From NCBI GenBank assembly GCA_029559475.1, contig JAKQBN010000061.1, forward strand, positions 3,488 to 67,487: a stretch of 64,000 bases of DNA, given 5' to 3'. The position numbers were made by a program, and so were the translations under genes. The stretch is from a bacterium. Its GTDB lineage: Bacteria; UBA4055. The number at the start of each line of letters is the position of its first letter. The first letter of the stretch is position 1. The notes under the pieces are model-generated. The model was not told the origin of the DNA. It made no database searches and saw nothing but the letters and a program-made list of their open reading frames with translations. Shown here in pieces: positions 29,449 through 41,729 of this stretch.

Positions 29449-29474
29449 AAAGCCGCTTTATGCGGCTTTTTTTA
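29449..29474 (+). terminator. Rho-independent terminator after korC
   Basis: AAGCCGC-UUUA-UGCGGCUU followed by a U-run. Confidence 0.55.
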
Positions 29475-29486
29475 ACGGAGGATCTT

Positions 29487-29924
29487 ATGCTCGAACAAAG
29501 CCTTCTTATGGTAAAACCCCATGCTTTTACCGCAAAAAAGACTGGGACAATTATCTCTATGCTTGAAGAAAATAATTTTCAGATCGTCGGTATAAAATCC
29601 ATCAAGCTGACTCCCGAACTGGCGAGAAGATTCTACTTCGTTCATCAGGGGAAAGAGTTCTTTGAAAGGCTGATAAATTATATGAGCACAGGAACAGTCG
29701 CCGCTATCTGCGTAGAAAAAGAGAACTGCGTAGCTGACTTAAGAAAATTTATCGGCGCTACCGACCCCTCAAAAGCTGCCGAGGGCACGATCAGAAAAGC
29801 TGTCGGCGTAACTGTGGAGCAGAACGGCGTTCATGCGTCCGATTCCGTCGATAACGCAAAAAAAGAGATCAGATTTTTCTTCTCGGACATCGAACTTTAT
29901 TCTTACAGATACCTGCAGTATTAG
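29487..29924 (+). CDS. ndk: Nucleoside diphosphate kinase
   Basis: LEQSLLMVKPHAF..., active-site His in NGVHASDS. The start is ATG 29487 with GGAGG RBS; the longer ORF-track start overlaps the terminator. Confidence 0.9.
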   Translation: MLEQSLLMVKPHAFTAKKTGTIISMLEENNFQIVGIKSIKLTPELARRFYFVHQGKEFFERLINYMSTGTVAAICVEKENCVADLRKFIGATDPSKAAEGTIRKAVGVTVEQNGVHASDSVDNAKKEIRFFFSDIELYSYRYLQY

Positions 29925-29933
29925 AGGATAATT

Positions 29934-29999
29934 ATGTCGCAGTTCCACAGGCTGATTTATATTGACAAAATGATAAATAAAGGGTCGTTACAGCTATGA
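29934..29999 (+). CDS. 21-codon upstream ORF (MSQFHRLIYIDKMINKGSLQL) that duplicates the WYL-regulator N-terminus and is translationally coupled (ATGA) to it
   Basis: A strong GAGGA RBS precedes ATG 29934, while the WYL ATG 29996 has no SD and overlaps the uORF stop (CTATGAGAG). The uORF peptide HRLIYIDKMINKGSL parallels ERIVYIDRTIKQKGSI of the downstream protein. Confidence 0.35.
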   Translation: MSQFHRLIYIDKMINKGSLQL

Positions 30000-30964
30000 G
30001 AGAAAAAAGCAAGATCGAGAGAATAGTCTATATCGACAGAACTATTAAGCAGAAAGGTTCAATAACAAAAAAGCAGATAATGGACTGGTCCGGTGCCTGC
30101 GAATCATCAGTTAAGAACGATATAGATTTTTTAAAAAATGAACTGAACGCACCCATTTATTATTCCGGCAAGAAAAAAGGCTACGCATACAAAGAAGATG
30201 TTCCATTCGAACTCTTAACATTTTTAAGCGAAAATATGGTGATCCTTTACGCTCTTTTGAAGGAATTCTTCTCGAACAGGAATTTTATGCCTGTAATAAC
30301 TGACAAGATACTAAAAGGTCTGAAGGATGAACTGCCTTCAGAATATAAAAACATTGATGGCAAGATAAGCTTCAGACTTTCTGAAGCTGAGAATCCTGAG
30401 ATGGATAAATTCGAGATCATTTTCAACTCGATACTAAACGAGACCTGCCTTGAAATTCATTATTCTGACGCTAAAGGCGTGAGTAGTGAGAGGAGTATCG
30501 AACCGCTTCACATTTACCACTATCAGGGGAAATGGTCTGTTTTTTCTTATTGCAAGAAAGCAAGGGATTACAGGGTATTCAACCTTTCGAGAATCACTAA
30601 ACTTGAAACAACTAGTAATAAATTCAGGATTGCTAATCACCCGCAGAACGTAATTGAAAATCACCTTAACGAAGCTTTCGGAGTAGCCAGAGGAAAAGAG
30701 ATCGAACAGGCCGTGATATGGTTCTATGAGCCGACAAGCCATCATGTAACCGATCAGAAGTGGCATCCTGATCAGATAACAGATCATATCACAAGAAAAG
30801 GCAAAAACATCCTGCAGTTTACGCTTCCAGTAGCTAAATACGAGGAGCTTGTCGGAAGAGTTCTGAGGTATGCGCCTGATGCTGAAGTCAGATCGCCAAT
30901 AGATATGCGTAATATGTGGCTAGACAAAATTAAGTCCCTTTCTGAAAAGTATCTGAAAAAATAA
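29996..30964 (+). CDS. WYL-domain transcriptional regulator (HTH-WYL-WCX architecture, BrxR/CapW-like)
   Basis: N-terminal HTH (IERIVYIDRTIKQKGSITKKQIMDWSGACESSVKNDIDFL). WYL-domain core (IEPLHIYHYQGKWSVFSYCKKARDYRVFNLSRI). C-terminal extension. First gene of the accessory island. Confidence 0.7.
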   Translation: MREKSKIERIVYIDRTIKQKGSITKKQIMDWSGACESSVKNDIDFLKNELNAPIYYSGKKKGYAYKEDVPFELLTFLSENMVILYALLKEFFSNRNFMPVITDKILKGLKDELPSEYKNIDGKISFRLSEAENPEMDKFEIIFNSILNETCLEIHYSDAKGVSSERSIEPLHIYHYQGKWSVFSYCKKARDYRVFNLSRITKLETTSNKFRIANHPQNVIENHLNEAFGVARGKEIEQAVIWFYEPTSHHVTDQKWHPDQITDHITRKGKNILQFTLPVAKYEELVGRVLRYAPDAEVRSPIDMRNMWLDKIKSLSEKYLKK

Positions 30965-31165
30965 AGCCTAACTTAATATTTACATAATAAGTCATTATTC
31001 TTGACCCGGTGCACCTGTATATTATTATTTATAGTATCTGTATAGAAAAAATAAAAATTAAGATATGAATGAACCATATACTTTTAATTTTCACAGATCA
31101 GGACAGTTTTTTTACCAGGTTGCATCTGTATCTTGTATTTATGTAATCCGGTATGAGGTGTAATT

Positions 31166-31399
31166 ATGGAAAAGATCAACTGTAAGAAATGCAGCGCAAC
31201 AATAGCTACTCCCGGCTATGCGAGTAGGACTTTTGCAGGAACTTATATGACCTGCTCCCAATGCGGTACTGAACTCAAAAAAGTTTCATATATTCTAAAG
31301 TTAAGTGAAGTTCAGGTCGCATTCGTATGTAAGAAATGCATCGCCATAATCAAAAAAAGGACCGGGCTCAAATGTCCGATATGCGGCACTATAAATTGA
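31166..31399 (+). CDS. Small double zinc-ribbon protein
   Basis: Four CxxC pairs: CKKC...CSQCG and CKKC...CPICG. 77 aa. RBS GAGGTG. Confidence 0.4.
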   Translation: MEKINCKKCSATIATPGYASRTFAGTYMTCSQCGTELKKVSYILKLSEVQVAFVCKKCIAIIKKRTGLKCPICGTIN

Positions 31400-31417
31400 T
31401 ATAAAGAAAATAAGGAG

Positions 31418-31651
31418 GTGAAAATGCAGAATGAAAAAGAAGCGGCTTACTGGAAAGCTGTTCAGAAATGGGCGGAAAAAGCGCAGACGCTTGTGCAGTA
31501 TCAGCAGAAAAACATGAAATGGTTCCTTTCGCCCGAGATAGTTCAGTGGTGCACGCCGAGCTACGAAAGTGAAGTGTCACAGCTTGAAAGAGAGGTCGAA
31601 AGACTCGAAAAAGAAGCTGACAGACTGGAAGTAGAAGCAGGATTAAACTAA
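31418..31651 (+). CDS. Small coiled-coil protein
   Basis: RBS AAGGAGG before the ATG. C-terminal EVSQLEREVERLEKEADRLEVEAG heptads. Confidence 0.35.
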   Translation: MKMQNEKEAAYWKAVQKWAEKAQTLVQYQQKNMKWFLSPEIVQWCTPSYESEVSQLEREVERLEKEADRLEVEAGLN

Positions 31652-31668
31652 ACAAAAAGAGGTGAAAA

Positions 31669-31884
31669 ATGAGCTTAGGGAAAGCTTTGCTTATCGGAGC
31701 TGCGGGGCTCGCGGCGGGATTATTAATAGCCGCATGGGCGGAAACAATGGACAGTGACTCATCAGATACTGATACGGATCTCGATCTTGACGATACCGGA
31801 GATTACACATATATCGGTGATTCGGATGAAACAATCGAAAGTGAGACTGATGAAACTTTGACAGACCAGATTCCGCAGGTATGA
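31669..31884 (+). CDS. Small single-pass membrane protein with a highly acidic Asp/Ser/Thr-rich tail
   Basis: RBS AGAGGTG. A TM helix LLIGAAGLAAGLLIAAWA is followed by DSDSSDTDTDLDLDDTGDYTYIGDSDETIESETDETLTD. Confidence 0.35.
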   Translation: MSLGKALLIGAAGLAAGLLIAAWAETMDSDSSDTDTDLDLDDTGDYTYIGDSDETIESETDETLTDQIPQV

Positions 31885-31908
31885 AAAAGGCGGGTAATTC
31901 CGCCTTTT
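31885..31908 (+). terminator. Rho-independent terminator
   Basis: AGGCGG-GUAAUU-CCGCCU followed by UUUU. Confidence 0.5.
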
Positions 31909-32008
31909 ATCCATGCGATTCTAGCAGACGTTATTATGATTCATGGATATACAATGGTATCATTGGAACTTAGAATCTCAAACTTAAATTAAAAGAAAGG
32001 AAATATTT

Positions 32009-32545
32009 ATGAAAAACGAAATCTATGACAAAACCAGGCTGCAAAGTGCCTTTGACAATCTTGACACTATACTCACGGAGTTAGATGTTAAAGATGAGTG
32101 TAGTAAGTTGTATAGCTTTATCGAATTTAAAGACTATGAAAAAGCCCTCGAAAGAGCCGAACTGATTATCATGAAACTACTGCCTAAATTCTGTACTAAG
32201 GAAGGCGAATTCTGCGAAGTTGATCAGTTTGTTATACTTGATTTTACTTATGCTATGTATGGCAAAGGATATTCTCTGTTCAAGCTCGGTAAATATTCTC
32301 AGGCTTATTTATACTTTAAAGATGTTTTTGACACTCTTCAGGAAAACTGCATTAGGCCTACCGGCGATCTGTTCTATTATATGGCTAAATCAAAACAGCT
32401 TTCAGATGATTTTGGTAAAGCATCGGCATTTTCATCAGGAAAGTTCTCAGGCTTCATGAAGCTTTTAGGACCCGAATTCCCTACCATTCCTGGAAATATG
32501 CGTGAACCAATTAAAAAACTAAAAAAGAAAGGTGATAAAAAATGA
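32009..32545 (+). CDS. Hypothetical protein, paralogous to the 40164 ORF
   Basis: The shared block FKDYEKALERAELIIMKL here matches AKKHYRKALTRAEIILSTL in 40164..40601. Overlaps the next gene (ATGA). Confidence 0.35.
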   Translation: MKNEIYDKTRLQSAFDNLDTILTELDVKDECSKLYSFIEFKDYEKALERAELIIMKLLPKFCTKEGEFCEVDQFVILDFTYAMYGKGYSLFKLGKYSQAYLYFKDVFDTLQENCIRPTGDLFYYMAKSKQLSDDFGKASAFSSGKFSGFMKLLGPEFPTIPGNMREPIKKLKKKGDKK

Positions 32546-33051
32546 TCATTCACGACTATTGCAAAAACTGTCCGTATTATCTAATAAATATGGCCGATAA
32601 GGGCTCACTGTCAAAAGAGGATAACGGTTCGGACACTATACTTGTTTTTCAGTCACCCGGCCGAAAAGAATGGGTAAATAAAAAGCCTTTAAGCTCAGAC
32701 TCTCCCCGTTCATGTAACGGGATCGTGTCGCGTTCCTGGGAAAGAACAGGAAGAAAGCGCGAAGAATTCGATATAACCAATGCGGTTCAATGCTATCCCG
32801 GTCAGGATCAGAAAACCAAACGCGATCTCCCGCCCGATCCCAAAGCCGTAGAACAATGCCTGTACTGCCTAGAGAAAGAAATTCTGTCTAAAAAGTATAA
32901 GATCGTTATTGCCTTCGGGAAAACTGCCGAAAAATCAGTGAACAGGATCGTTGAAAAACATAATCTTGATACTATCGTGATCAATTCTAAGCATCCTGTG
33001 GCAGGCGTAATAAAAAGAGATATTGATAATTTATGGACAAAGAAACAATAA
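32542..33051 (+). CDS. Uracil-DNA glycosylase superfamily protein (family-4-like layout) with divergent active-site motif
   Basis: N-terminal CKNCPYY, then ILVFQSPGRKE at the motif-A position (GEAPG in family 4), ITNAVQCYPG at the family-4 VKCRPP position, and a C-terminal KIVIAFGKTA. Confidence 0.45.
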   Translation: MIIHDYCKNCPYYLINMADKGSLSKEDNGSDTILVFQSPGRKEWVNKKPLSSDSPRSCNGIVSRSWERTGRKREEFDITNAVQCYPGQDQKTKRDLPPDPKAVEQCLYCLEKEILSKKYKIVIAFGKTAEKSVNRIVEKHNLDTIVINSKHPVAGVIKRDIDNLWTKKQ

Positions 33052-33785
33052 AAGGGGAATTTATGGATACTCTCTTAAGCGGTATTGATACAATAGACAG
33101 CGGACTGGAAGGATTTTCATTAGGAGAAATGGTTATCTCCGCTTCCAGGCCCGGGCATGGCAATATCTACCTTCTGTTGTCGATCGTGAGGGGAATTTAT
33201 TACGACTTCATTGATAGGTACAAATGCCTGGTTTTCTCGAACTCTGAAAAAAGCAGGCTAAAACCTTTACAGCCCGGAGATGAAGATATATTTATTTACT
33301 ATAAGTTCCAGAGCGATTCATTAACGGGTTTTTTCTCCGAACTTGAAGATCAGATTAAACTAAACGATACGAAGATCTTGATTATCGACTACAATGAAAC
33401 CAGTTTTCAGAAGAATAAGAACTTCTTCATCGGTCTTAAAAATATAGCAGTTAGAAAAAATATTCTTATCTTCATTAAATCGTATTTGACGCGGCAGTCC
33501 GCACGAAAATCGTGGTTCAATCCTCAGATAGCAGATATTGAGGGAGCACCAGTAGTTGAAAAGATCGCGGATAAGTATATAATCATGCACCGTCTTGATG
33601 TTCTCGGTATCAAGGATGCTTCCGGGCGTGATCAGACAAATATCGTCGATATCAGGCTCTGTGCAAGAGATCTGTGCCATACAGGCTCTAAGTACATTTA
33701 TTTCAACAGCGACAAGAATATTTTCGAAAATTTCACTCCGCTTCATAACAGATACGGGTACTACTATCTTTACAGTGAAAACTAA
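33033..33785 (+). CDS. DnaB-C-terminal-like (RecA-fold) protein with a degenerate Walker A
   Basis: VISASRPGHGNIYLLLSIV aligns with DnaB IIAARPSMGKTAFALN (K to N, T to I). ILIIDYNETSF matches the DnaB lvvIDYLQ block, LKNIAVRKNILIFIKSYLTRQ matches the LK-LAkEl-vPV block, and ADIEGAPVVEKIADKYIIMHR matches the SDLRESGAIEQDADvV-flyR block. No N-terminal helicase domain. Confidence 0.4.
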   Translation: MDKETIKGEFMDTLLSGIDTIDSGLEGFSLGEMVISASRPGHGNIYLLLSIVRGIYYDFIDRYKCLVFSNSEKSRLKPLQPGDEDIFIYYKFQSDSLTGFFSELEDQIKLNDTKILIIDYNETSFQKNKNFFIGLKNIAVRKNILIFIKSYLTRQSARKSWFNPQIADIEGAPVVEKIADKYIIMHRLDVLGIKDASGRDQTNIVDIRLCARDLCHTGSKYIYFNSDKNIFENFTPLHNRYGYYYLYSEN

Positions 33786-33817
33786 GACAGCAAAATAAAT
33801 AATTTAAGGGAGAATTT

Positions 33818-34165
33818 ATGACTATCCATTATTCAAAGCAAATTTACAGCGAATTAGCCACTATCAAAGCTGAATTTGACAGGATTGCTGAAAATTTATA
33901 CAAAATAAAAAAGAAGTATTATGCAATAAATTTCGACATCTCTGAGAATGAAAAGCTCGAAGAGGAGATATTCAAAAACGAGTGCGCCCTGGAAGCTCTC
34001 GAAGACACCGATGAAGAAATTTTATCAAAGATCCGTAATAAGATCGCAGGATTACAGAAAAGAATAGAAGATAATAAAAACCAAGATACGATACTGAAAA
34101 GCATTGATGATATTTTCTTGGATATTGATCAGAAAATTCAGATTCTGGATCACCAGATCGATTGA
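33818..34165 (+). CDS. Small coiled-coil protein
   Basis: RBS AAGGGAG. Heptad-rich sequence, 115 aa. Confidence 0.3.
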   Translation: MTIHYSKQIYSELATIKAEFDRIAENLYKIKKKYYAINFDISENEKLEEEIFKNECALEALEDTDEEILSKIRNKIAGLQKRIEDNKNQDTILKSIDDIFLDIDQKIQILDHQID

Positions 34166-34239
34166 GCATGACCCGTTCATTGAAATAGAATCAGACCTTT
34201 TACTGAAAACTCACTAAATTTTAATTAAACGGAGTAATT

Positions 34240-34455
34240 ATGAAAAACAACCATAAAATCAGCTTCATAAAGCCTGTACCTTATGCAGTGCCTGACTTAA
34301 GATTCTGCAATATATATTGCTTTAAAGAAATTATCATGCCTGATGACCGGATTGGCAATATCGGTGATTCATGGACATATTGTGTAATCGATTCGCAGGA
34401 AATATTTTATAATCCTTTATGTAAATCAAACGGAGACTATAGCTATGAATGCTGA
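34240..34455 (+). CDS. Hypothetical small protein
   Basis: RBS ACGGAG. 71 aa. Overlaps the next ORF. Confidence 0.25.
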   Translation: MKNNHKISFIKPVPYAVPDLRFCNIYCFKEIIMPDDRIGNIGDSWTYCVIDSQEIFYNPLCKSNGDYSYEC

Positions 34456-34861
34456 AAAAGAAATTACAGATAAGATTTTTTTTAAAAATCCCAGAACCGG
34501 AGAAACTCAGACTGTAGGCAGTAACTTAAACATCATATTTGGAGTGTTTTCCGTAATGTGCGGAATACCATTATTTATCAGAAGGCTTAACTCATGGGGA
34601 TATGTTATGCTAGCTTTACAAAGCGTGTATATGCTCCTATACCCTCAGTTCAGAGAAGGCGATTATTGCTCGATCTTTTTTTTACTTTTCGTTGAAATCA
34701 TAATCAGCTTATATTTAGGCATCAAAGGTAACAGGCTCCTTACGATCTATTACTTTGAGAACGGGTGGATTATGGAAAATCCTCATAATGAAATGGTCCG
34801 GAACACATTCAAAAAATGGAAACTTGAACCTGAAGTAATCCCTCGCAAGGGAGTCAAATGA
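34445..34861 (+). CDS. Hypothetical membrane protein
   Basis: Hydrophobic segments (IIFGVFSVMCGIPLFI, CSIFFLLFVEIIISLYLGI). Confidence 0.3.
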   Translation: MNAEKEITDKIFFKNPRTGETQTVGSNLNIIFGVFSVMCGIPLFIRRLNSWGYVMLALQSVYMLLYPQFREGDYCSIFFLLFVEIIISLYLGIKGNRLLTIYYFENGWIMENPHNEMVRNTFKKWKLEPEVIPRKGVK

Positions 34862-34885
34862 AAAACAGAAAAGAACAAATTTCTA

Positions 34886-35278
34886 TGCTACAAATGTAAT
34901 GGCAACGAAACAAGGCTACACAACCTGCGATCTGTCGGTATCGGAGGTCATACCGACAGGCAGGACTGTGTGAATTGCGATAATTACACAACTATTCTCA
35001 ACTGCGCAGAGCGCGAATTATTCGAAGAGATCTCACTCAGAATCGATAAGAACAGACTCAAATTCATCGGGATCATCAACGACGATAAAACCGAAGTAGG
35101 CTCAGTACACTTCGGAGCCGTTTTCTTATACAAACTCGATGATATTGAAAAAATAAAAAACACTACCGAAATCGAATCATACCAATGGCTGAGCATGAAA
35201 GAGATTGACGGTACAGATAATCTTGAAGAATGGAGCAGAATAGCTATGATCCTGTATAAAGATTTTTTCCTAAAATGA
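34886..35278 (+). CDS. Nudix-box-containing fragment (possible gene remnant)
   Basis: An in-frame ATG at 34886 gives MYKCNGNETRLHNLRSVGIGGHTD...ILNCAERELFEEISL. RELFEEIS matches the Nudix REUxEExGU core but the Gx5E spacing is disrupted. The ORF-track version starts at GTG 34970. Confidence 0.3.
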   Translation, partial: CYKCNGNETRLHNLRSVGIGGHTDRQDCVNCDNYTTILNCAERELFEEISLRIDKNRLKFIGIINDDKTEVGSVHFGAVFLYKLDDIEKIKNTTEIESYQWLSMKEIDGTDNLEEWSRIAMILYKDFFLK

Positions 35279-35348
35279 AAATTATTCAGCTTGACTTTAC
35301 CTCCCGGAAAATTGCATATTTACACAACCTGAATCGAGAGGTAAAAGG

Positions 35349-36278
35349 ATGGCGATTGTTAATGTTGAATATTGTGGTAATGTAATAATTCCTTCTTTGG
35401 ATATCGAAATTACCAACCAGCACATCATAAATGCAACGGAGTTTAATTTAAATATTTTTAAACGACAAGGCATTACTTTTACTGGAACTGGGCAAAATAT
35501 TTCACAAGTTGATATTGATTTTGATCCGAGTAAAAATGCCGTTCCAGATGTATGGAGGTATACAATAAAAATTGATAAAAAAAGATGTTTATCACTCGTA
35601 AAATCAAAAGTAGGTTACAGAACATGCCACGTTGAAGCATGTAAGAACTTCCTCAATAACAAAAATTTTCCTCAAGATGTAGATATTGCAAAATGCATTT
35701 CAAATGCAAAATGCAAATTTTATAAAAAATACCCAGTTATCCTTCTCCTTCTCGAATCTCCTCATAAAAATGAGTATACTAATGCTTTCATTCAAATCGC
35801 ACCAGCGCAAAAAAGTACAGGAAAATGCATAGAGAGTAATATAATAAGTCTAATAGAAGAAATAAATAAGCGCATAAATCCTCAATTACCCATAAATACA
35901 AACTACAAGCTGATAATAGCAAATCCTATACCGTTTCAAACTTCATTACACATTTTAAAAAATAAAGATTCAGGATTTGATGATAACCAAAGAAAGTTAA
36001 GAGATAGAATTTGGAAATCACTCTGGCATCAAAATAGCTTAAGATACAATTTTCTAAATCGTCTGAACAACGATTACAAGCCCGATCTTGTTATAAATGC
36101 CTGTACAGAAAATCTGCAACCTTTGGTTTCCTGTTGCATAATTTGCGGAACTTGCTATCCTTTAGTTGAAACCAAACACCCAGCTAATCATTGGAATAAA
36201 TATACAAAAAATAATAAAAGCAAATTCACTCCTGCGGAAATTCTGAAACTTAGATTTGGAATAGAAGTGATCAGATAA
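35349..36278 (+). CDS. Hypothetical Cys-rich protein
   Basis: 309 aa. RBS GAGAGGTAAAAGG. The C-terminus has CCIICGTCYP. Confidence 0.3.
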   Translation: MAIVNVEYCGNVIIPSLDIEITNQHIINATEFNLNIFKRQGITFTGTGQNISQVDIDFDPSKNAVPDVWRYTIKIDKKRCLSLVKSKVGYRTCHVEACKNFLNNKNFPQDVDIAKCISNAKCKFYKKYPVILLLLESPHKNEYTNAFIQIAPAQKSTGKCIESNIISLIEEINKRINPQLPINTNYKLIIANPIPFQTSLHILKNKDSGFDDNQRKLRDRIWKSLWHQNSLRYNFLNRLNNDYKPDLVINACTENLQPLVSCCIICGTCYPLVETKHPANHWNKYTKNNKSKFTPAEILKLRFGIEVIR

Positions 36279-36371
36279 TTCATTTCTCTATCATAACTCC
36301 TAATTTTTCTTTGACTTAAACCCTCATTCTTTGTAAATTCAGGTTATATTTTATAAAGGATCAACCCACAG

Positions 36372-38777
36372 ATGAGTTTATATGAAAAATTACAAAAAGC
36401 TACAAGCGAAGAAGATGTTAAAGACGCATATATCAAAGCTCTGGGATTAAAAAACTACTCGAAAAATCTGATTGACCTGCAAACAAAAGAAATCTGGTTT
36501 GAAGCAAAAGATACGAAAAGAAATTCAACGTACGCTATGTTCACACAATTGATGCATTATGTTCAGGCCGCTTTGAACAAAGGCGAATATATTCCGCCAT
36601 TTTTGGCAGTAATTGATACCGAAAAAGCAGCGATAATGAAAAGCTCGGATGTTATACCTTTCTTAGCAAAGAAAACAATAAAATGGGGTAAATCTGCGAG
36701 CCAGTACACACAAGAAGCGCTTGATGAAATCTCAACACATATCGGTACTCATTTTGTTTCGTTTAAAATATCTACGCATGAAGAAGAATTTATTAGCACT
36801 GTAAAAGAAGCTATAAAATCAGGCGATATAATCAGGACTAATATCACTCCTGATAACCTCAAGCAGGTATTTGATAAATGGGTATCTATGATAGGCAGGG
36901 AAATAAAAGAAGTCGATGAGAAAGATTATGCTTTGCTATTCTACGCGGATATTATGCACGATGGGGTAATGGCAACTCATAGTAATTTAACTGCTCAACT
37001 GCTACATAAAAACGACGCCCCGGTATTTAGCTTAAATGGGCACTTATACGAGCTTGGAAACAAGGAAGGTTACCGTCAGTTTTGGGCAATTTACCAAAAG
37101 CCACCTAAAGAGGAATACCGGAATTATTTACTTGAGAGGCGCGATAGTTTGATTCCTCTTGACGAGAGAGTATATAAAGGCGGCTATTACACACCTTTGA
37201 ATGTCGTAGATAAGGCTTACGATAAACTTACTGAAACATTAGGCAAGAACTGGCAGAAAGATTACATAGTTTGGGATATGTGTTGCGGGGTAGGAAATTT
37301 AGAGGTTAAGCATAGTAATCATCGAAATATTTTTATGTCAACATTGGATATGGCCGATGTTGATATTATGCAAGCTACAAAAACCTGCGTGGCAGCCCAG
37401 CGTTTTCAATATGATTATTTAAACGACGATATCACAGATAATGGACAAATTGATTATACCCTCACAAATAAAGTACCTTCAAGTTTACTGAAAGCTATAA
37501 AGGAAGAAAAAAAGATTTTAGTGTTGATTAATCCTCCCTATGCTGAATCAACAAGTTCAGATAATATTAATACAGGAGGGGCTTCAGACTCAAGTAAGAC
37601 TGGCATTGCAAAAACAAAGCTAGCACAATCAGCTATGAGTGAGTATGGTAAAGCAAGTAATGAACTCTTTACTCAGTTTGTTGTCAGAATAGCTAAAGAA
37701 ATGCCTAATGCAACTTTAGCTATGTTTAGCACTATGAAGTATGTCAATTCTCAAACATTAGAAATATTTCGTTCTGTTTGGAATGCAAAATATTTGGATG
37801 GTTTCGTTGTACATAGCAAAACCTTTGATGGGTTGAAAGGCGATTTTCCAATTGGATTCTTAATATGGAAAACGGATCAAAAATCAAAAACCAAACAACC
37901 CATAGTAGAAATATCCACTGAAGTGTTAGACAGACATGTCAATCCCATTGGTGAAAAATGCTTTTACAATATTTCTAACGATTTACTTCTAACTAATTGG
38001 ATAAAACGTCCCAAAACAAATGAAACAGAAGTTATCCCATTAAAAAATGCAATTACTCCTGCAACCGCGAATAAAGATTTAAGAGGAACTAAGTGGTCTA
38101 AAGATGCTCTTGCGTTTTGTTGGTGTAATGGTAATGATGTACAACAAGCTTCACGAACCGCATTATTCTCTTCTGGTTTCAATGGTGGTCATGGATTATT
38201 TGTTAATCCTGAAAATCTCTGGCAAGTCGCAATAATGTTTTCAGTTCGTCAATTAGTTAAACACACATGGGTTAATCATAATGACCAGTTTTTAATACCA
38301 ACAGAGCCATTATCTTATGAGTTTAAAACCGATTGTTTAATTTTCATGTTGTTTCATGGTAAAAATCTTTCAGCAAGTGCAAATGATCTAAAATGGAATG
38401 ATAAAAAGTGGTCAATAGTAAATCATTTCATCCCCTTTACTGAAGTAGAAGTAAATTCGCCAGGCCGTTTTGAATCGGACTTTATGGTTCAGTACCTGGC
38501 TGATAAAGAGCTTTCTCCTGAAGCTAAAACAGTTTTAGATGGGGGAAGAAAATTATGGCAAAGCTATTTTTCTGAGACTGATGTTAGATCTGTACGAGAT
38601 AAATACTGTCTTAACAGAACTGATGTCGGCTGGTATCAGGTTCGTAAAGCACTTGAAGAGAGAAATGCCAGCGGAGATTTCATTCCGGTTAGTTTCAAAC
38701 CCTTAGAAGAAGCATATAAGAACTTAACCGATAAGCTGAACCCGCAAGTTTATGAGCTTGGGTTCTTGCGTAAATAA
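36372..38777 (+). CDS. MmeI-like Type IIL/IIG restriction-modification protein (N-terminal PD-ExK nuclease + gamma-class N6-adenine methyltransferase + C-terminal target-recognition region)
   Basis: The N-terminus IDLQTKEIWFEAKDT...AMFTQLMHYVQAALNKGEYIPPFLAVIDTEKAAI parallels the MmeI catalytic region VDLFWPGILLIEMK...AYDQALDYF...LPRYVLVCDFQRFRL (D-x8/9-E-x-K). MTase motif I VWDMCCGVGNL. Motif IV VLINPPYAES. Confidence 0.6.
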   Translation: MSLYEKLQKATSEEDVKDAYIKALGLKNYSKNLIDLQTKEIWFEAKDTKRNSTYAMFTQLMHYVQAALNKGEYIPPFLAVIDTEKAAIMKSSDVIPFLAKKTIKWGKSASQYTQEALDEISTHIGTHFVSFKISTHEEEFISTVKEAIKSGDIIRTNITPDNLKQVFDKWVSMIGREIKEVDEKDYALLFYADIMHDGVMATHSNLTAQLLHKNDAPVFSLNGHLYELGNKEGYRQFWAIYQKPPKEEYRNYLLERRDSLIPLDERVYKGGYYTPLNVVDKAYDKLTETLGKNWQKDYIVWDMCCGVGNLEVKHSNHRNIFMSTLDMADVDIMQATKTCVAAQRFQYDYLNDDITDNGQIDYTLTNKVPSSLLKAIKEEKKILVLINPPYAESTSSDNINTGGASDSSKTGIAKTKLAQSAMSEYGKASNELFTQFVVRIAKEMPNATLAMFSTMKYVNSQTLEIFRSVWNAKYLDGFVVHSKTFDGLKGDFPIGFLIWKTDQKSKTKQPIVEISTEVLDRHVNPIGEKCFYNISNDLLLTNWIKRPKTNETEVIPLKNAITPATANKDLRGTKWSKDALAFCWCNGNDVQQASRTALFSSGFNGGHGLFVNPENLWQVAIMFSVRQLVKHTWVNHNDQFLIPTEPLSYEFKTDCLIFMLFHGKNLSASANDLKWNDKKWSIVNHFIPFTEVEVNSPGRFESDFMVQYLADKELSPEAKTVLDGGRKLWQSYFSETDVRSVRDKYCLNRTDVGWYQVRKALEERNASGDFIPVSFKPLEEAYKNLTDKLNPQVYELGFLRK

Positions 38778-38798
38778 ATATAAATCTTTCTCTGGAGG

Positions 38799-39839
38799 AT
38801 GTTAATGTCTGATAACAATATACCTGAAAACAATAATAATAGTTTGGAAAATATTGCCAAAGATTACACTGAAAAAATGCTTTCTAAATCGATAAGTAAT
38901 ATTAATTTAGACTCTTTGAAAGGTAATTCCGATAAGATAAAAGAAATTAAAGATAAAATATCATTTCATTCAATACATAGCGAACCGGTTCTTATCACAG
39001 GTGCAAGTGGTACAGGTAAAAGGCTCGTGGCTCATCTGATTCATAGCAACAGTATCTATAAAGAAAAGCCATACAAAGAAATAAACTGTCTGCTTTTTTC
39101 TAACGATAGGTTTAATTTTGACGAACTTATAGATCTTCCTAATGGTGGCACTATCTATATTAGTAATACTCATCAACTGCCTTTGCAAGCTCAATTAAAT
39201 ATAATATATCTACTTTACGACGACTTTAAGAATGAAAAGCCCTCGATACCTAAAGTACGGTTTATCTTTAGTGCAGAGAGTAATCTCATTGAATATGTAG
39301 ATAAAGGCAGCCTCCAGAAAAGCTTCTTTGATCTTATAAGTAACTTTGAAATTAAAACACCAAGTTTATACGAGATCAAAGACGATATTAAGATATTAGC
39401 TGAAAGCTTAGTTGACAAACTAAACCAAAAGTATTTAAAGCAAATTGTGTTACGTTCTGATGCCTATGCTGTTCTAAAAAATCAATTATACATGAATAAT
39501 GTACATGACTTAAAGAATGTTTTGATAAAATCTTTTATTCACGCTATGTACGAAGATAATGAAATAATCATGGCTGGGGATATAAAGAAGCATTTTGAAC
39601 CTTACATAATCAAATGCATAGACGAAATACTCGTACCGATACCAATGCCTGAAAATAAGTCTCTTTCATCATACCTTGAAGAGATTAAGATCAAAATTTA
39701 TGAATCTGCTTTGAACCATACTTCAAAGACTTTAGGCAAAAAGAGCCAGAAAAAAGCTAGTGAGTTTCTAAATGAAGATCAATCAACAATATCCAGGTTA
39801 GAAAATAAAAGAAAAACCAAATTTCTTAAATCACTATAA
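38799..39839 (+). CDS. Degenerate sigma-54-activator-like AAA+ domain protein with C-terminal HTH (catalytic motifs and GAFTGA loop absent)
   Basis: PVLITGASGTGKRLVAHLIHSNS and PYKEINC match the bEBP Walker A/NC region. Walker B is replaced (GGTIYISNT versus GTLFLDEI). No GAFTGA. The arginine-finger region is FFDL instead of FReDL. The C-terminus TLGKKSQKKASEFLNEDQSTISRL is Fis-type HTH-like. Confidence 0.5.
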   Translation: MLMSDNNIPENNNNSLENIAKDYTEKMLSKSISNINLDSLKGNSDKIKEIKDKISFHSIHSEPVLITGASGTGKRLVAHLIHSNSIYKEKPYKEINCLLFSNDRFNFDELIDLPNGGTIYISNTHQLPLQAQLNIIYLLYDDFKNEKPSIPKVRFIFSAESNLIEYVDKGSLQKSFFDLISNFEIKTPSLYEIKDDIKILAESLVDKLNQKYLKQIVLRSDAYAVLKNQLYMNNVHDLKNVLIKSFIHAMYEDNEIIMAGDIKKHFEPYIIKCIDEILVPIPMPENKSLSSYLEEIKIKIYESALNHTSKTLGKKSQKKASEFLNEDQSTISRLENKRKTKFLKSL

Positions 39840-39865
39840 TAATTTTTCACTTACATCAATTATAT

Positions 39866-39891
39866 ATTATTAATATATATATATTAATAAT
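39866..39891. repeat. Perfect 26-bp AT-only palindrome ATTATTAATATATATATATTAATAAT
   Basis: Exact reverse-complement symmetry. It sits in a 320-bp AT-rich intergenic spacer inside the island. Confidence 0.6.
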
Positions 39892-40102
39892 TGAAGAACT
39901 ATATCGTCTTCATTCCATTGCAAACTTATGAATATTTAAAGTACTGCCCATTACAGAATCAAAAAAATGTTTATCTATTACTTAGGCACAATTAAGTATT
40001 ATATCAATTCGTATATTATTTTTTAATTATTACTTACAGCATTATTTCATATTCGAATATTTATAGCTATTATACATAAATTTTCATAATCGATTTTTTT
40101 AC

Positions 40103-40131
40103 TTGACAAAGGTTTTTTTTTATTTTATAAT
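40103..40131 (+). promoter_or_regulatory. Consensus sigma70 promoter TTGACA-N17-TATAAT
   Basis: TTGACA 40103-40108 and TATAAT 40126-40131, about 30 nt upstream of the 40164 ORF. Confidence 0.5.
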
Positions 40132-40163
40132 TCGGGAGAAGTTAAAATAAAAAAAGGATCAGG

Positions 40164-40601
40164 ATGACTTGTAAAAACAACGAAATAGACACCGAAATGG
40201 TGCAAGACGCAGAACTTGAAGCACAAAAGGAAATAGAGTATGCGATAGCCGATAAAGCTGTAAGCGAACTCTTCAAATCAATAGCTAAGAAACACTACAG
40301 AAAAGCTCTTACAAGAGCAGAAATAATTTTAAGCACCCTAAATGATTCCGTAACTCCCAGAGTTTTCACGGATAAAGAAGAATTTTATGTTAGATACTCA
40401 ACTTATATCAGGGCATATTGCCACCTGATGGTTCACAATTATAAAATGGCCTTAACGGGTTATAATGATTTACTAAGATTTAATGAAAGCACTAATGCTG
40501 TAACACCAGATTTTGTAATCACTGAGCTCAAAGAAGCTCAGAATAAATCAGAAAAGATGGTCCAACCGAGACAGAAGCAACAATTAAAAAACCAGAGGTA
40601 A
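40164..40601 (+). CDS. Hypothetical protein (paralog of 32009 ORF), first gene of cassette A
   Basis: RBS AAAAGGA. Shared motif KHYRKALTRAEIIL. Confidence 0.35.
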   Translation: MTCKNNEIDTEMVQDAELEAQKEIEYAIADKAVSELFKSIAKKHYRKALTRAEIILSTLNDSVTPRVFTDKEEFYVRYSTYIRAYCHLMVHNYKMALTGYNDLLRFNESTNAVTPDFVITELKEAQNKSEKMVQPRQKQQLKNQR

Positions 40602-40604
40602 AAA

Positions 40605-40844
40605 ATGAGAAGGCGAAAGAATAATAAACAGCATCTTTATTACAATGGTGTATGTAATTCTCAAAAGAAGAATCCTTATGAATTCGAATACAATTTCACA
40701 TATAATAAAGATAGAACAGCTGTGAAAAGGTACGCATTTAATTCTGGGAACAAGGTGGTTAACGAAACGTTCCAGGAATGTATGGGGTGGTTGAATCTTG
40801 CGAAAGAGGGAATAGATGTTGTGTTTTGCTTGTTAGGAGGATAG
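40605..40844 (+). CDS. Small basic protein with Arg-rich N-terminus (cassette A partner)
   Basis: MRRRKNNKQ...YNFTYNKDRTAVKRYAFNSGNKVVNETFQECMGWLNLAKEGIDVVF. Paralogous to the 41374 ORF. Confidence 0.35.
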   Translation: MRRRKNNKQHLYYNGVCNSQKKNPYEFEYNFTYNKDRTAVKRYAFNSGNKVVNETFQECMGWLNLAKEGIDVVFCLLGG

Positions 40845-40916
40845 CTTTGACTTATAACCTGATATCTAATTCTAACTAAACTTAAAAGCCCAAAAATAAA
40901 AATATAAGGAGCAATT

Positions 40917-41381
40917 ATGAAACAGAAAGATCTTTACGGACAACCAATAACATGTGAAAACAATAGTAGTGATACGCTTATAATGCTTGATATGCCTGAT
41001 AAAAAGTCTCGTACTTCTCATAATTTAATCAGTATGCTTGAAAAATCCTGGGTGCGGGCAGCCTTAAGCATGAAGGATTTCGATCTCTTCTTTGCTTCAA
41101 ACTGCAGTCATCAGGAAGACGAAATCAATATTGGGTTGCCCATCGAAAAGTATGCTTACGATCATTATATTGAACTGCTTAAGAAGAACATCGTCAAAAA
41201 AGGGATTAAGTATAAACGGGTCATTGCACTGGGTGATTTCTCAGAGAAAGTCGCATGGGACATATCAGACGAAATTGCAGAAAAGGACTCAAAAATCGTT
41301 TTCCTACAGATACCATTAAATAATGTTTACGATGAGGATCTGGATAGAATCTGGACCGAAGAGGAGGGCAAAAATGATTAG
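40917..41381 (+). CDS. Hypothetical protein, first gene of cassette B
   Basis: RBS TAAGGAG. 154 aa, acidic C-terminus. Overlaps the next ORF (ATGATTAG). Confidence 0.3.
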   Translation: MKQKDLYGQPITCENNSSDTLIMLDMPDKKSRTSHNLISMLEKSWVRAALSMKDFDLFFASNCSHQEDEINIGLPIEKYAYDHYIELLKKNIVKKGIKYKRVIALGDFSEKVAWDISDEIAEKDSKIVFLQIPLNNVYDEDLDRIWTEEEGKND

Positions 41382-41571
41382 AAGAATTAAAAGAATAAGG
41401 AGATCGAAAAGATTCAAGTATAATTTTGAACTAGGAACGAACCCTATGGTAAAAAGAACATACCGTTATTCTTCAGGTAACGATACGGTCGATGATATCT
41501 TCCACGAGAGTGTAGCTTGTTTGAACACTGTCAAAGAAGTCATCGATATTTTTTTTGATTTCATTACGTAA
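41374..41571 (+). CDS. Small basic protein with Arg-rich N-terminus (cassette B partner)
   Basis: MIRRIKRIRRSKRFKYNFELGTNPMVKRTYRYSSGNDTVDDIFHESVACLNTVKEVIDIFF aligns with the 40605 ORF along its length. Confidence 0.35.
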   Translation: MIRRIKRIRRSKRFKYNFELGTNPMVKRTYRYSSGNDTVDDIFHESVACLNTVKEVIDIFFDFIT

Positions 41572-41619
41572 TCACAGTAATCTAACTACAAGGCGAACAT
41601 GCCTGTAAATATTAACATT

Positions 41620-41649
41620 GGCCAGCAATATCAAAGCTGGCCTTTTTTT
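41620..41649 (+). terminator. Rho-independent terminator ending the island's plus-strand block
   Basis: GGCCAGC-AAUAUCAAA-GCUGGCC followed by UUUUUUU. Confidence 0.55.
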
Positions 41650-41729
41650 ATCCTTTTCTTTTGATGTAGTCTAAGTTATTATTAAATTCGGCATAAAAAC
41701 ATTACAGATACAATACGGATATATTTGAT

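Follow-up and report, generated by a model that had tools for sequence, protein, structure and literature searches.

A four-gene operon duplicating a TPR-like/UDG-like gene pair, with a small basic protein gene after each large gene

The 64-kb stretch of contig JAKQBN010000061.1 from a UBA4055 bacterium, here called the window in its whole length, contains at 40103-41649 a single four-gene operon running from a sigma-70 promoter to an intrinsic terminator. This operon is an ancient, diverged duplicate of a gene pair located at 32009-33051, in which the gene of a TPR-like protein is followed by that of a uracil-DNA glycosylase (UDG)-like protein; the order of the pair is kept, and a small gene stands after each of its members. 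Both units lie in one island of the window (29996-41700). The initial annotation, at whose positions all four same-strand open reading frames (ORFs) were located, had described a tandem duplication of a two-gene cassette, but the duplicated unit is the 32009 + 32542 pair. The genes of the operon are designated large A, small A, large B and small B, and the features are as follows (E, expectation value; aa, amino acids; SD, Shine-Dalgarno).

40103..40131, + strand: promoter, TTGACA-17 nt-TATAAT with a T-tract in front; sigma-70 consensus 12/12
40164..40601, + strand: large A, 145-aa TPR-like protein; E = 6e-6 to ORF 32009
40605..40844, + strand: small A, 79 aa, MRRRK basic tail and predicted C-terminal helix; E = 4e-11 to small B
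40917..41381, + strand: large B, 154-aa acidic protein, degenerate member of the UDG superfamily; E = 7e-16 to ORF 32542..33051
41374..41571, + strand: small B, 65 aa, bipartite, canonical member of its family; GGAGG SD site and N-terminal alignment
41620..41649, + strand: intrinsic terminator, GGCCAGC-9 nt-GCTGGCC-T7; folding of the flank
32009..32545, + strand: first gene of the source pair, 178-aa TPR-like protein; paralogue of large A, ATGA-coupled to 32542
32542..33051, + strand: second gene of the source pair, 169-aa UDG-superfamily protein, family-4-like; Pfam UDG 1.3e-11, Fe-S cysteines, HP in motif B

Duplication of the gene pair

Paralogy was assessed by BLASTP, also within a six-frame database of 2192 segments from the window and related loci. 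The loci used for comparison are L002, from the genome of a relative whose FtsK and Memo proteins are 70% and 63% identical to those of the window; L003, a contig of a Candidatus (Ca.) Delongbacteria metagenome-assembled genome (MAG); L004, identical DNA from metagenome contigs; and L006, from plasmid p1 of Azospirillum brasilense (NZ_CP032346.1).

Large B and the UDG-like ORF 32542 align along their whole length, with 28% identity over 150 aa and a pairwise E of 7e-16 (4.5e-13 among the six-frame segments), and since ORF 32542 is the gene following ORF 32009, the operon duplicates that gene pair. Large A is paralogous to ORF 32009 (E = 6e-6), as had been proposed from a block of shared residues; the two are bridged by the large protein of L002, which matches large A with E = 2e-10 (33% identity) and ORF 32009 with E = 6e-13, and the block K-Y-AL-RAE-L is invariant in the alignment of the TPR-like proteins. 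Small A and small B are 35% identical over 51 aa (E = 4e-11; 1e-7 to 3e-8 in the six-frame database), and the pairwise alignments suggested earlier as a check thus uphold both of the paralogies that had been claimed. Among the 18 island genes, all-versus-all comparison gives exactly three paralogue pairs, 32009/40164, 32542/40917 and 40605/41374.

Large A and large B had been regarded as counterparts diverged beyond recognition, but large B does not match the profile of the TPR-like proteins and has its paralogue in ORF 32542. Against that three-protein profile, large B does not exceed the scores of its own shuffled sequences, and it was rejected as a diverged TPR-like protein; a relationship to sigma region 4 reached E = 0.1 only and was rejected as well. 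An N-terminal likeness of large A and large B, 'TC(K/E)NN..DT' (E = 0.02; 17-nt DNA repeat), is probably due to chance, because this stretch of large B aligns with EDNGSDT of ORF 32542.

The duplication is old, with third codon positions at or near saturation: their identity is 0.24 between large B and ORF 32542 and 0.35 between large A and ORF 32009, while second positions of large B and ORF 32542 are identical at 0.67. The genes of the operon are maintained, as seen from the conservation of first and second codon positions and from the open coding frame, which has 12 stops in 469 codons versus 21-49 in the other frames. ORF 32009 carries a C-terminal extension (32400-32545) in which 'SAFSSGKFSGFMKLL' resembles the core 'YAFNSGNKVVNETF' of the small proteins; this extension is not detected by the small-protein profile, and the likeness is probably due to chance.

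The designation of large A as TPR-like stems solely from sub-threshold matches of its paralogues to TPR models, as large A has no TPR hit of its own in Pfam. ORF 32009 matches Pfam TPR_1 with E = 9.5e-4 and 19.3 bits, which is below the cut-off of 27.8, and the L002 homologue matches Pfam TPR at a sub-threshold E of about 0.09. This TPR-like family has only three members, a word-indexed profile search of 5.8 billion proteins having found just the queries, and a sequence search of the Protein Data Bank (PDB) with the TPR-like profile gives nothing significant, the top match being RapF (E = 0.8).

Promoter, terminator and translational signals

The consensus promoter noticed earlier at 40103 is indeed a perfect one, and at 40103-40131 stands the sole such match in the 64 kb, where 0.02 are expected. 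The leader is short, with about 26 nt between the -10 box and the ATG of large A. The terminator placed at 41620 is borne out as well, as 41620-41649 comprises a 7-bp GC-rich stem, a 9-nt loop and U7, and the 84-nt 3' flank containing it folds with a free energy of -21.1 kcal/mol (z = -3.94), a stability equalled in 0 of 200 shuffles. The terminator scan overlooked this hairpin solely through its loop of more than 8 nt. The 72 nt that separate small A from large B show no structure on folding, and neither a terminator nor a credible promoter in the scan; with no such signal between the two gene pairs, the four genes are thus one operon and not two cassettes. No RNA family of Rfam is found within the operon region.

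SD-like sites, read by eye, precede each ATG by 5-6 nt: AGGA at 40155-40158 for large A, GAGG at 40595-40598 for small A, AAGGAG at 40906-40911 for large B and GGAGG at 41363-41367 for small B. The overlapping starts of ATGA type described earlier are only partly recovered, as large B and small B do overlap, by 8 nt (ATG at 41374, TAG at 41379-41381), but large A and small A are separated by a 3-nt gap (TAA at 40599-40601, ATG at 40605), and neither junction is ATGA. A genuine ATGA overlap occurs only in the TPR-like/small pair of L002 and in the 32009/32542 pair of the window. Public gene calls give small B as 82 aa from the ATG at 41323 (41323-41571). The ATG at 41374 (65 aa) is favoured here as the probable start, because it is preceded by the GGAGG site and opens with MIRRIKR, which aligns with the MRRRK of small A.

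The upstream regions of the window operon, L002 and L003 have in common a T-tract, ACTTGACAAA and a -10-like box, and no operator-like inverted repeat common to the three promoters was found. A 13-nt inverted repeat at the transcription start was rejected as a candidate, as it consists of poly-T/poly-A and is not kept in L002 or L003.

Loss of UDG motifs in large B

ORF 32542 is a member of the UDG superfamily by its match to PF03167 (1.3e-11); its match to UDG_fam4 of NCBIfam (6e-9) is below the trusted cut-off of that model, and it aligns with the Thermus thermophilus UDG 1UI0 through motif A and the TN..KC segment. With 33% identity (E = 2e-18), the product of L006:4965-5516 on the Azospirillum plasmid is homologous to it and has CxxC and HPSSG intact. 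This UDG-like gene is the closest relative of ORF 32542 in the annotated collections; it adjoins an ORF with a Fic motif (HPFRDGNGR), and has neither a TPR-like nor a small basic neighbour.

The three proteins were aligned and their positions were mapped on 1UI0. ORF 32542 and the Azospirillum protein share an N-terminal CxxC, (Q/R)(S/A)PG, TN.VQCYPG, a further Cys and motif B, HP(V/S)(A/S)G. In large B, the glycine of motif A, a loop of the GE[AG]PG type, is gone (FQSPG/ARAPG to LDMP-), the base-contacting asparagine is gone (TNAVQC to FFASNC), and the histidine of motif B, an HPS-type loop, is gone (SKHPVAG/IPHPSSG to LQIPLNN), while only one of the four Fe-S cysteines is retained (the 'QC' position), the CxxC and C-terminal Cys positions being lost. 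Large B has no direct Pfam UDG hit and no PADLOC hit, and its homology to the UDG superfamily is transitive, via ORF 32542. It returned only itself from the word-indexed search of 5.8 billion proteins and gave nothing significant in the PDB sequence search, and its single-sequence AlphaFold2 (AF2) model is unusable, with a predicted local distance difference test score (pLDDT) of 37.6.

As judged from the alignment, large B thus lacks the residues that define active family-4 UDGs and their 4Fe-4S cluster. It is likely to be catalytically inactive, and represents a new, degenerate branch of the UDG superfamily.

The small basic proteins

Small A and small B are not recognised by any of the annotation libraries applied to the four operon proteins (Pfam, PADLOC, PHROGs and NCBIfam), and their PDB sequence search gives nothing significant. 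Small A returned only itself from the 5.8 billion proteins of the word-indexed search. A HMMER profile of small A and small B, run in full on 1.84 billion representatives, adds one true member (P0005, 68 aa); P0004 and P0006 from the same search were rejected as repeat-protein artefacts, being multi-stretch hits in long tandem-repeat proteins. Scanning genome contigs with the profile gives one further member of 70 aa at L003. The survey of metagenomes that had been recommended found homologous genes only at L004, which is the L003 DNA again. In viral contigs, phages and plasmids, no relatives of the small protein, the TPR-like protein or large B were found. The small proteins therefore constitute a new family, with four members across all collections searched.

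The basic N-termini that had been noted in small A and small B recur in the whole family, as all four members begin with a polybasic segment (MRRRK or MIRRIKRIRR), followed by a variable linker and a conserved core of 37 aa, K-x-Y-K/R-Y-S-S-G-x-x-x-V-D/N-D/E-I-F-x-E-S-V-x-C-L-N-x-x-K-E-x-I/L-D-x-x-F. The isoelectric points are 10-12 for the N-terminal parts and 4.2-4.5 for the C-terminal parts, with the exception of small A (6.2). The core of small B is 59-65% identical to those of the L002 and L003 members, making it the canonical copy, while small A is the divergent one (38-43% to the other three members). The AF2 model of small B, built from a three-sequence alignment, has residues 1-36 disordered and one amphipathic helix at 37-64 (pLDDT of about 75 in the helix, 60 overall). 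The structure prediction proposed for these proteins is thus answered in part: the Arg-rich N-terminal tail is probably disordered, but a single helix is all that follows, and no DNA-binding profile was hit. Codon identity among the small genes is 62-78% at positions 1 and 2 versus 32-51% at position 3, and because the first two positions are far more conserved than the third, these are real genes under protein-level selection.

Related loci in other genomes

In L002, at the syntenic place beside ftsK, a TPR-like gene is followed by an ATGA-coupled small gene, a terminator and a DUF1232 gene. From this position, the TPR + small unit is thus ancestral in this lineage. Whereas FtsK and Memo are 70% and 63% identical between the window and L002, the large proteins reach 33% and the small proteins 35-48%, so that the operon proteins evolve much faster than core-genome proteins.

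In L003, the small gene is located 66 nt downstream of a gene for a SigB/F/G-type sigma factor and upstream of a DUF1232 gene. The small gene is always directly downstream of another gene, while the fold of the partner differs: L002 has a TPR-like partner, L003 a SigB/F/G-type sigma factor, and the window both a TPR-like and a UDG-like one.

Around the L003 small gene, the segments L003:1-2762 and L003:5093-6624 are defence-island-like, with NYN, Prok-E2, JAB + ThiF(E1) and P-loop + Csx3-like AAA genes. A direct repeat of about 60 nt (CTGAATA[G/A]GATTCGGGGTTTGTAAACCTGGCAACAGAAGCTTCA...) at L003:3230-3290 and L003:4985-5045 brackets the sigma factor, small and DUF1232 genes. Each copy has AGGAGGGG about 50 nt upstream and a 10-codon mini-ORF, and the repeats give weak alpha_tmRNA-like hits in Rfam (E = 0.004 and 0.31) and none with ARAGORN. 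These repeats could mark the two ends of a mini-insertion in the manner of att sites, or represent a regulatory RNA element. The MAG from which the window comes bears the label 'Clostridiales bacterium' at NCBI; however, it encodes Por_Secre_tail proteins of the T9SS type, and it shares the small-protein family with the Ca. Delongbacteria MAG.

Genomic setting of the operon

A low-GC island setting of the operon is plausible. The GC content is 0.30-0.39 within the island (29996-41700) versus 0.42-0.47 in the flanks, and the operon closes the island, whose borders are ndk (29460-29924) and oadG/oadB/tRNA-Leu; no integrase was found within it. The genes follow one another as a WYL/WCX regulator, three small ORFs, the TPR-like and UDG-like pair, a DnaB_C-like gene, a NUDIX fragment, a methyltransferase-like protein of 801 aa with weak methyltransferase hits only, an AAA+/helix-turn-helix (HTH) protein and the operon. 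The NUDIX ORF (34970-35278, 102 aa, GTG start) matches only the C-terminal part of phrog_8902 (136-230 of 238) and may be a truncated gene.

The AAA+/HTH protein directly upstream of the operon (38799-39839) is of the sigma-54-activator type, its best PADLOC model being RtcR_PspF2 (1e-29). Aligned with NtrC1 (1NY6), it has the GAFTGA motif deleted and the Walker B residues DE replaced by SN, and it lacks a sensor domain at its N-terminus; the protein is probably a non-hydrolysing regulator that does not depend on sigma-54. No sigma-54 motif GG-N10-GC (TGG-N9-TGC) occurs in 39840-40163, and together with the loss of GAFTGA this argues that the operon is not sigma-54 dependent. A sigma-54 promoter for the operon was rejected accordingly, the promoter being the sigma-70 consensus.

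Proposed function and alternatives

The operon may serve the UDG-containing system of the island as an accessory or regulatory module without catalytic activity of its own, in which the small proteins dock on the partner encoded upstream and bind nucleic acid; the probability that we assign to this reading is roughly 0.35. Through its amphipathic C-terminal helix, each small protein would attach to the product of the preceding gene, which in the window would be the TPR scaffold or the pseudo-glycosylase and in L003 a sigma factor, while the Arg-rich tail would give affinity for nucleic acid and so tether or modulate a DNA-directed partner. This proposal is made because the UDG fold and the sigma factor are both DNA-directed, and because the source pair couples the TPR-like protein to a UDG.

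Several points weigh against it. Docking and nucleic-acid binding are predictions from sequence features and from a small-protein model of low confidence (pLDDT 60, 3-sequence alignment); the family has four members only, and co-occurrence statistics are weak; in L003, 66 nt lie between the sigma gene and the small gene, and the two are not coupled; and the TPR assignment is sub-threshold. In addition, the MUG/TDG branches of the UDG superfamily lack the motif-B histidine, and large B may for this reason still be active.

The small proteins might further be regarded as a new class of modular trans-acting adaptors acting on unrelated DNA-directed partners (a TPR/UDG-fold complex, a sigma factor), to which they would give nucleic-acid affinity or which they would switch off, the operon then being a pseudo-glycosylase-based sensor or regulator of the neighbouring UDG-containing, defence-like system. 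This extended proposal is speculative and rather unlikely as it stands.

An active enzyme is the first alternative to be weighed. The operon would then be a second, highly diverged glycosylase module directed at a different, phage-modified base, with the small proteins as DNA-tethering subunits. The duplication of the entire TPR-UDG pair in order, the low-GC island headed by a WYL regulator and the fast divergence are all consistent with such a module, as is the origin of the antiphage UDG-superfamily proteins Brig1 and Brig2, which are stand-alone effectors from A/T-rich islands (PMC11078745; 10.1101/2025.10.29.685425). However, ORF 32542 keeps the motif-A glycine, the base-contacting asparagine, the motif-B histidine and the four Fe-S cysteines, whereas large B has lost all of these but one cysteine and is hit by neither the UDG profile nor PADLOC, which makes this alternative unlikely. 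Large B resembles Brig1 and Brig2 in that its gene also lies in an A/T-rich island, but these act as single genes, whereas the gene of large B shares its operon with three others, for a TPR-like protein and two small proteins. Compared with the family-4 UDGs (PF03167, TIGR00758), large B is homologous over its full length to a UDG-family ORF, but differs in having no UDG profile hit and in the residues and cysteines just named.

Alternatively, the small proteins may inhibit the protein encoded upstream, in the manner of an anti-sigma factor or of Ugi, and form inhibitor/target or toxin-antitoxin couples. Known UDG inhibitors are acidic DNA mimics, and the C-terminal part of the small proteins is acidic; translational coupling is seen in three of the four loci, the strong promoter could be autoregulated, and the L003 gene just downstream of the SigB/F/G-type sigma factor is in the usual position of an anti-sigma gene. 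On the other hand, it is unparsimonious that a single family should inhibit three unrelated folds, and neither a TPR-like scaffold nor a degenerate glycosylase fold makes a likely toxin. Searches with Pfam, PADLOC, PHROGs and NCBIfam recover no domain of a toxin or antitoxin, and the family, with four members only, is missing from plasmids, phages and viral contigs. We thus consider inhibition improbable.

The same evidence bears on the toxin-antitoxin, anti-defence or specificity-switching role given in the initial annotation, which gains no positive support: none of the four proteins has a match in these libraries, there are no phage, plasmid or viral relatives, and the four family members occur in one narrow lineage. 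Like type II toxin-antitoxin systems, the operon has small, tightly coupled gene pairs that evolve fast, follow a strong promoter and lie where an island ends, but it differs in the absence of toxin and antitoxin domains, in being neither mobile nor widespread, and in the derivation of its large genes from a TPR/UDG pair. A reading as a diversified paralogous specificity module is possible.

In another alternative, the small protein binds DNA autonomously, as a ribbon-helix-helix (RHH)-like protein might, and autoregulates the conserved strong promoter, with no specific tie to the gene that precedes its own. The partners differ, and the three loci have two features in common, namely the small gene and the promoter region (T-tract, ACTTGACAAA, -10 box); strand-helix(-helix) repressors, taken for comparison by length and layout, resemble the small proteins in the length and arrangement of the basic segment, K-x-Y-K-Y-S and helix. 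Yet no RHH or other DNA-binding profile is hit even at E <= 10, the AF2 model has one continuous helix, the three promoters have no inverted repeat or operator in common, and the conserved sequence is merely a near-consensus promoter. Autoregulation of this kind is therefore distinctly improbable.

It is very unlikely that the operon is a decaying or neutral duplicate with no present function. The ORFan-like distribution and the catalytic residues lost in large B would agree with decay, but four frames are intact in DNA of 32-37% GC, the SD sites, perfect promoter and terminator are retained, protein similarity is kept where synonymous sites are saturated, and TPR + small persists at the same chromosomal position in a relative with 70% identical FtsK.

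A TPR receptor of RNPP type with a downstream signalling pro-peptide (Rap-Phr or AimR-AimP-like), suggested by the TPR-like gene with its coupled small gene and by the non-significant top PDB match to RapF (E = 0.8), is effectively refuted by sequence features, as the small proteins have a polybasic, hydrophilic N-terminus with no hydrophobic signal segment and a conserved 37-aa core, the TPR-like proteins (145-178 aa) contain no HTH or phosphatase part, and small B follows a UDG-like and not a TPR protein.

Comparison with known systems and implications

Two further known arrangements offer partial parallels. PscG/YscG of type III secretion systems, which binds the needle protein, and the class II chaperones are small TPR-like scaffolds that clasp an amphipathic helix. 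They resemble the operon in that a helical-repeat-like protein of about 150 aa has for its neighbour a small protein that is disordered at the N-terminus and ends in an amphipathic helix, but no sequence similarity was detected, no secretion system is nearby, and the TPR assignment in the operon is below threshold. Lambda N and FlgM are small regulators, the former with an Arg-rich motif and the latter a disordered anti-sigma factor. The small proteins share with them the small size and, as predicted features, the basic disordered N-terminus and the C-terminal partner-binding helix, and one member follows a sigma gene; no homology was found, however, three of the four members do not follow a sigma factor, and, unlike in the case of lambda N, the operon leader of about 26 nt is too short for a nut-like RNA site.

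The annotation of the region is to be changed in three respects: large B is a UDG-superfamily paralogue, small B probably starts at 41374, and the locus should not carry a toxin-antitoxin label. The analysis also defines a family of small proteins that Pfam does not contain and whose partners range from a sigma factor to a UDG fold; since only a few uncultured genomes have this family, its importance beyond them is limited. If the favoured reading is true, a glycosylase-containing island system would have duplicated its TPR + UDG head, silenced the enzyme copy and added small basic subunits, which would be one route by which defence-like systems may gain regulators or decoys.

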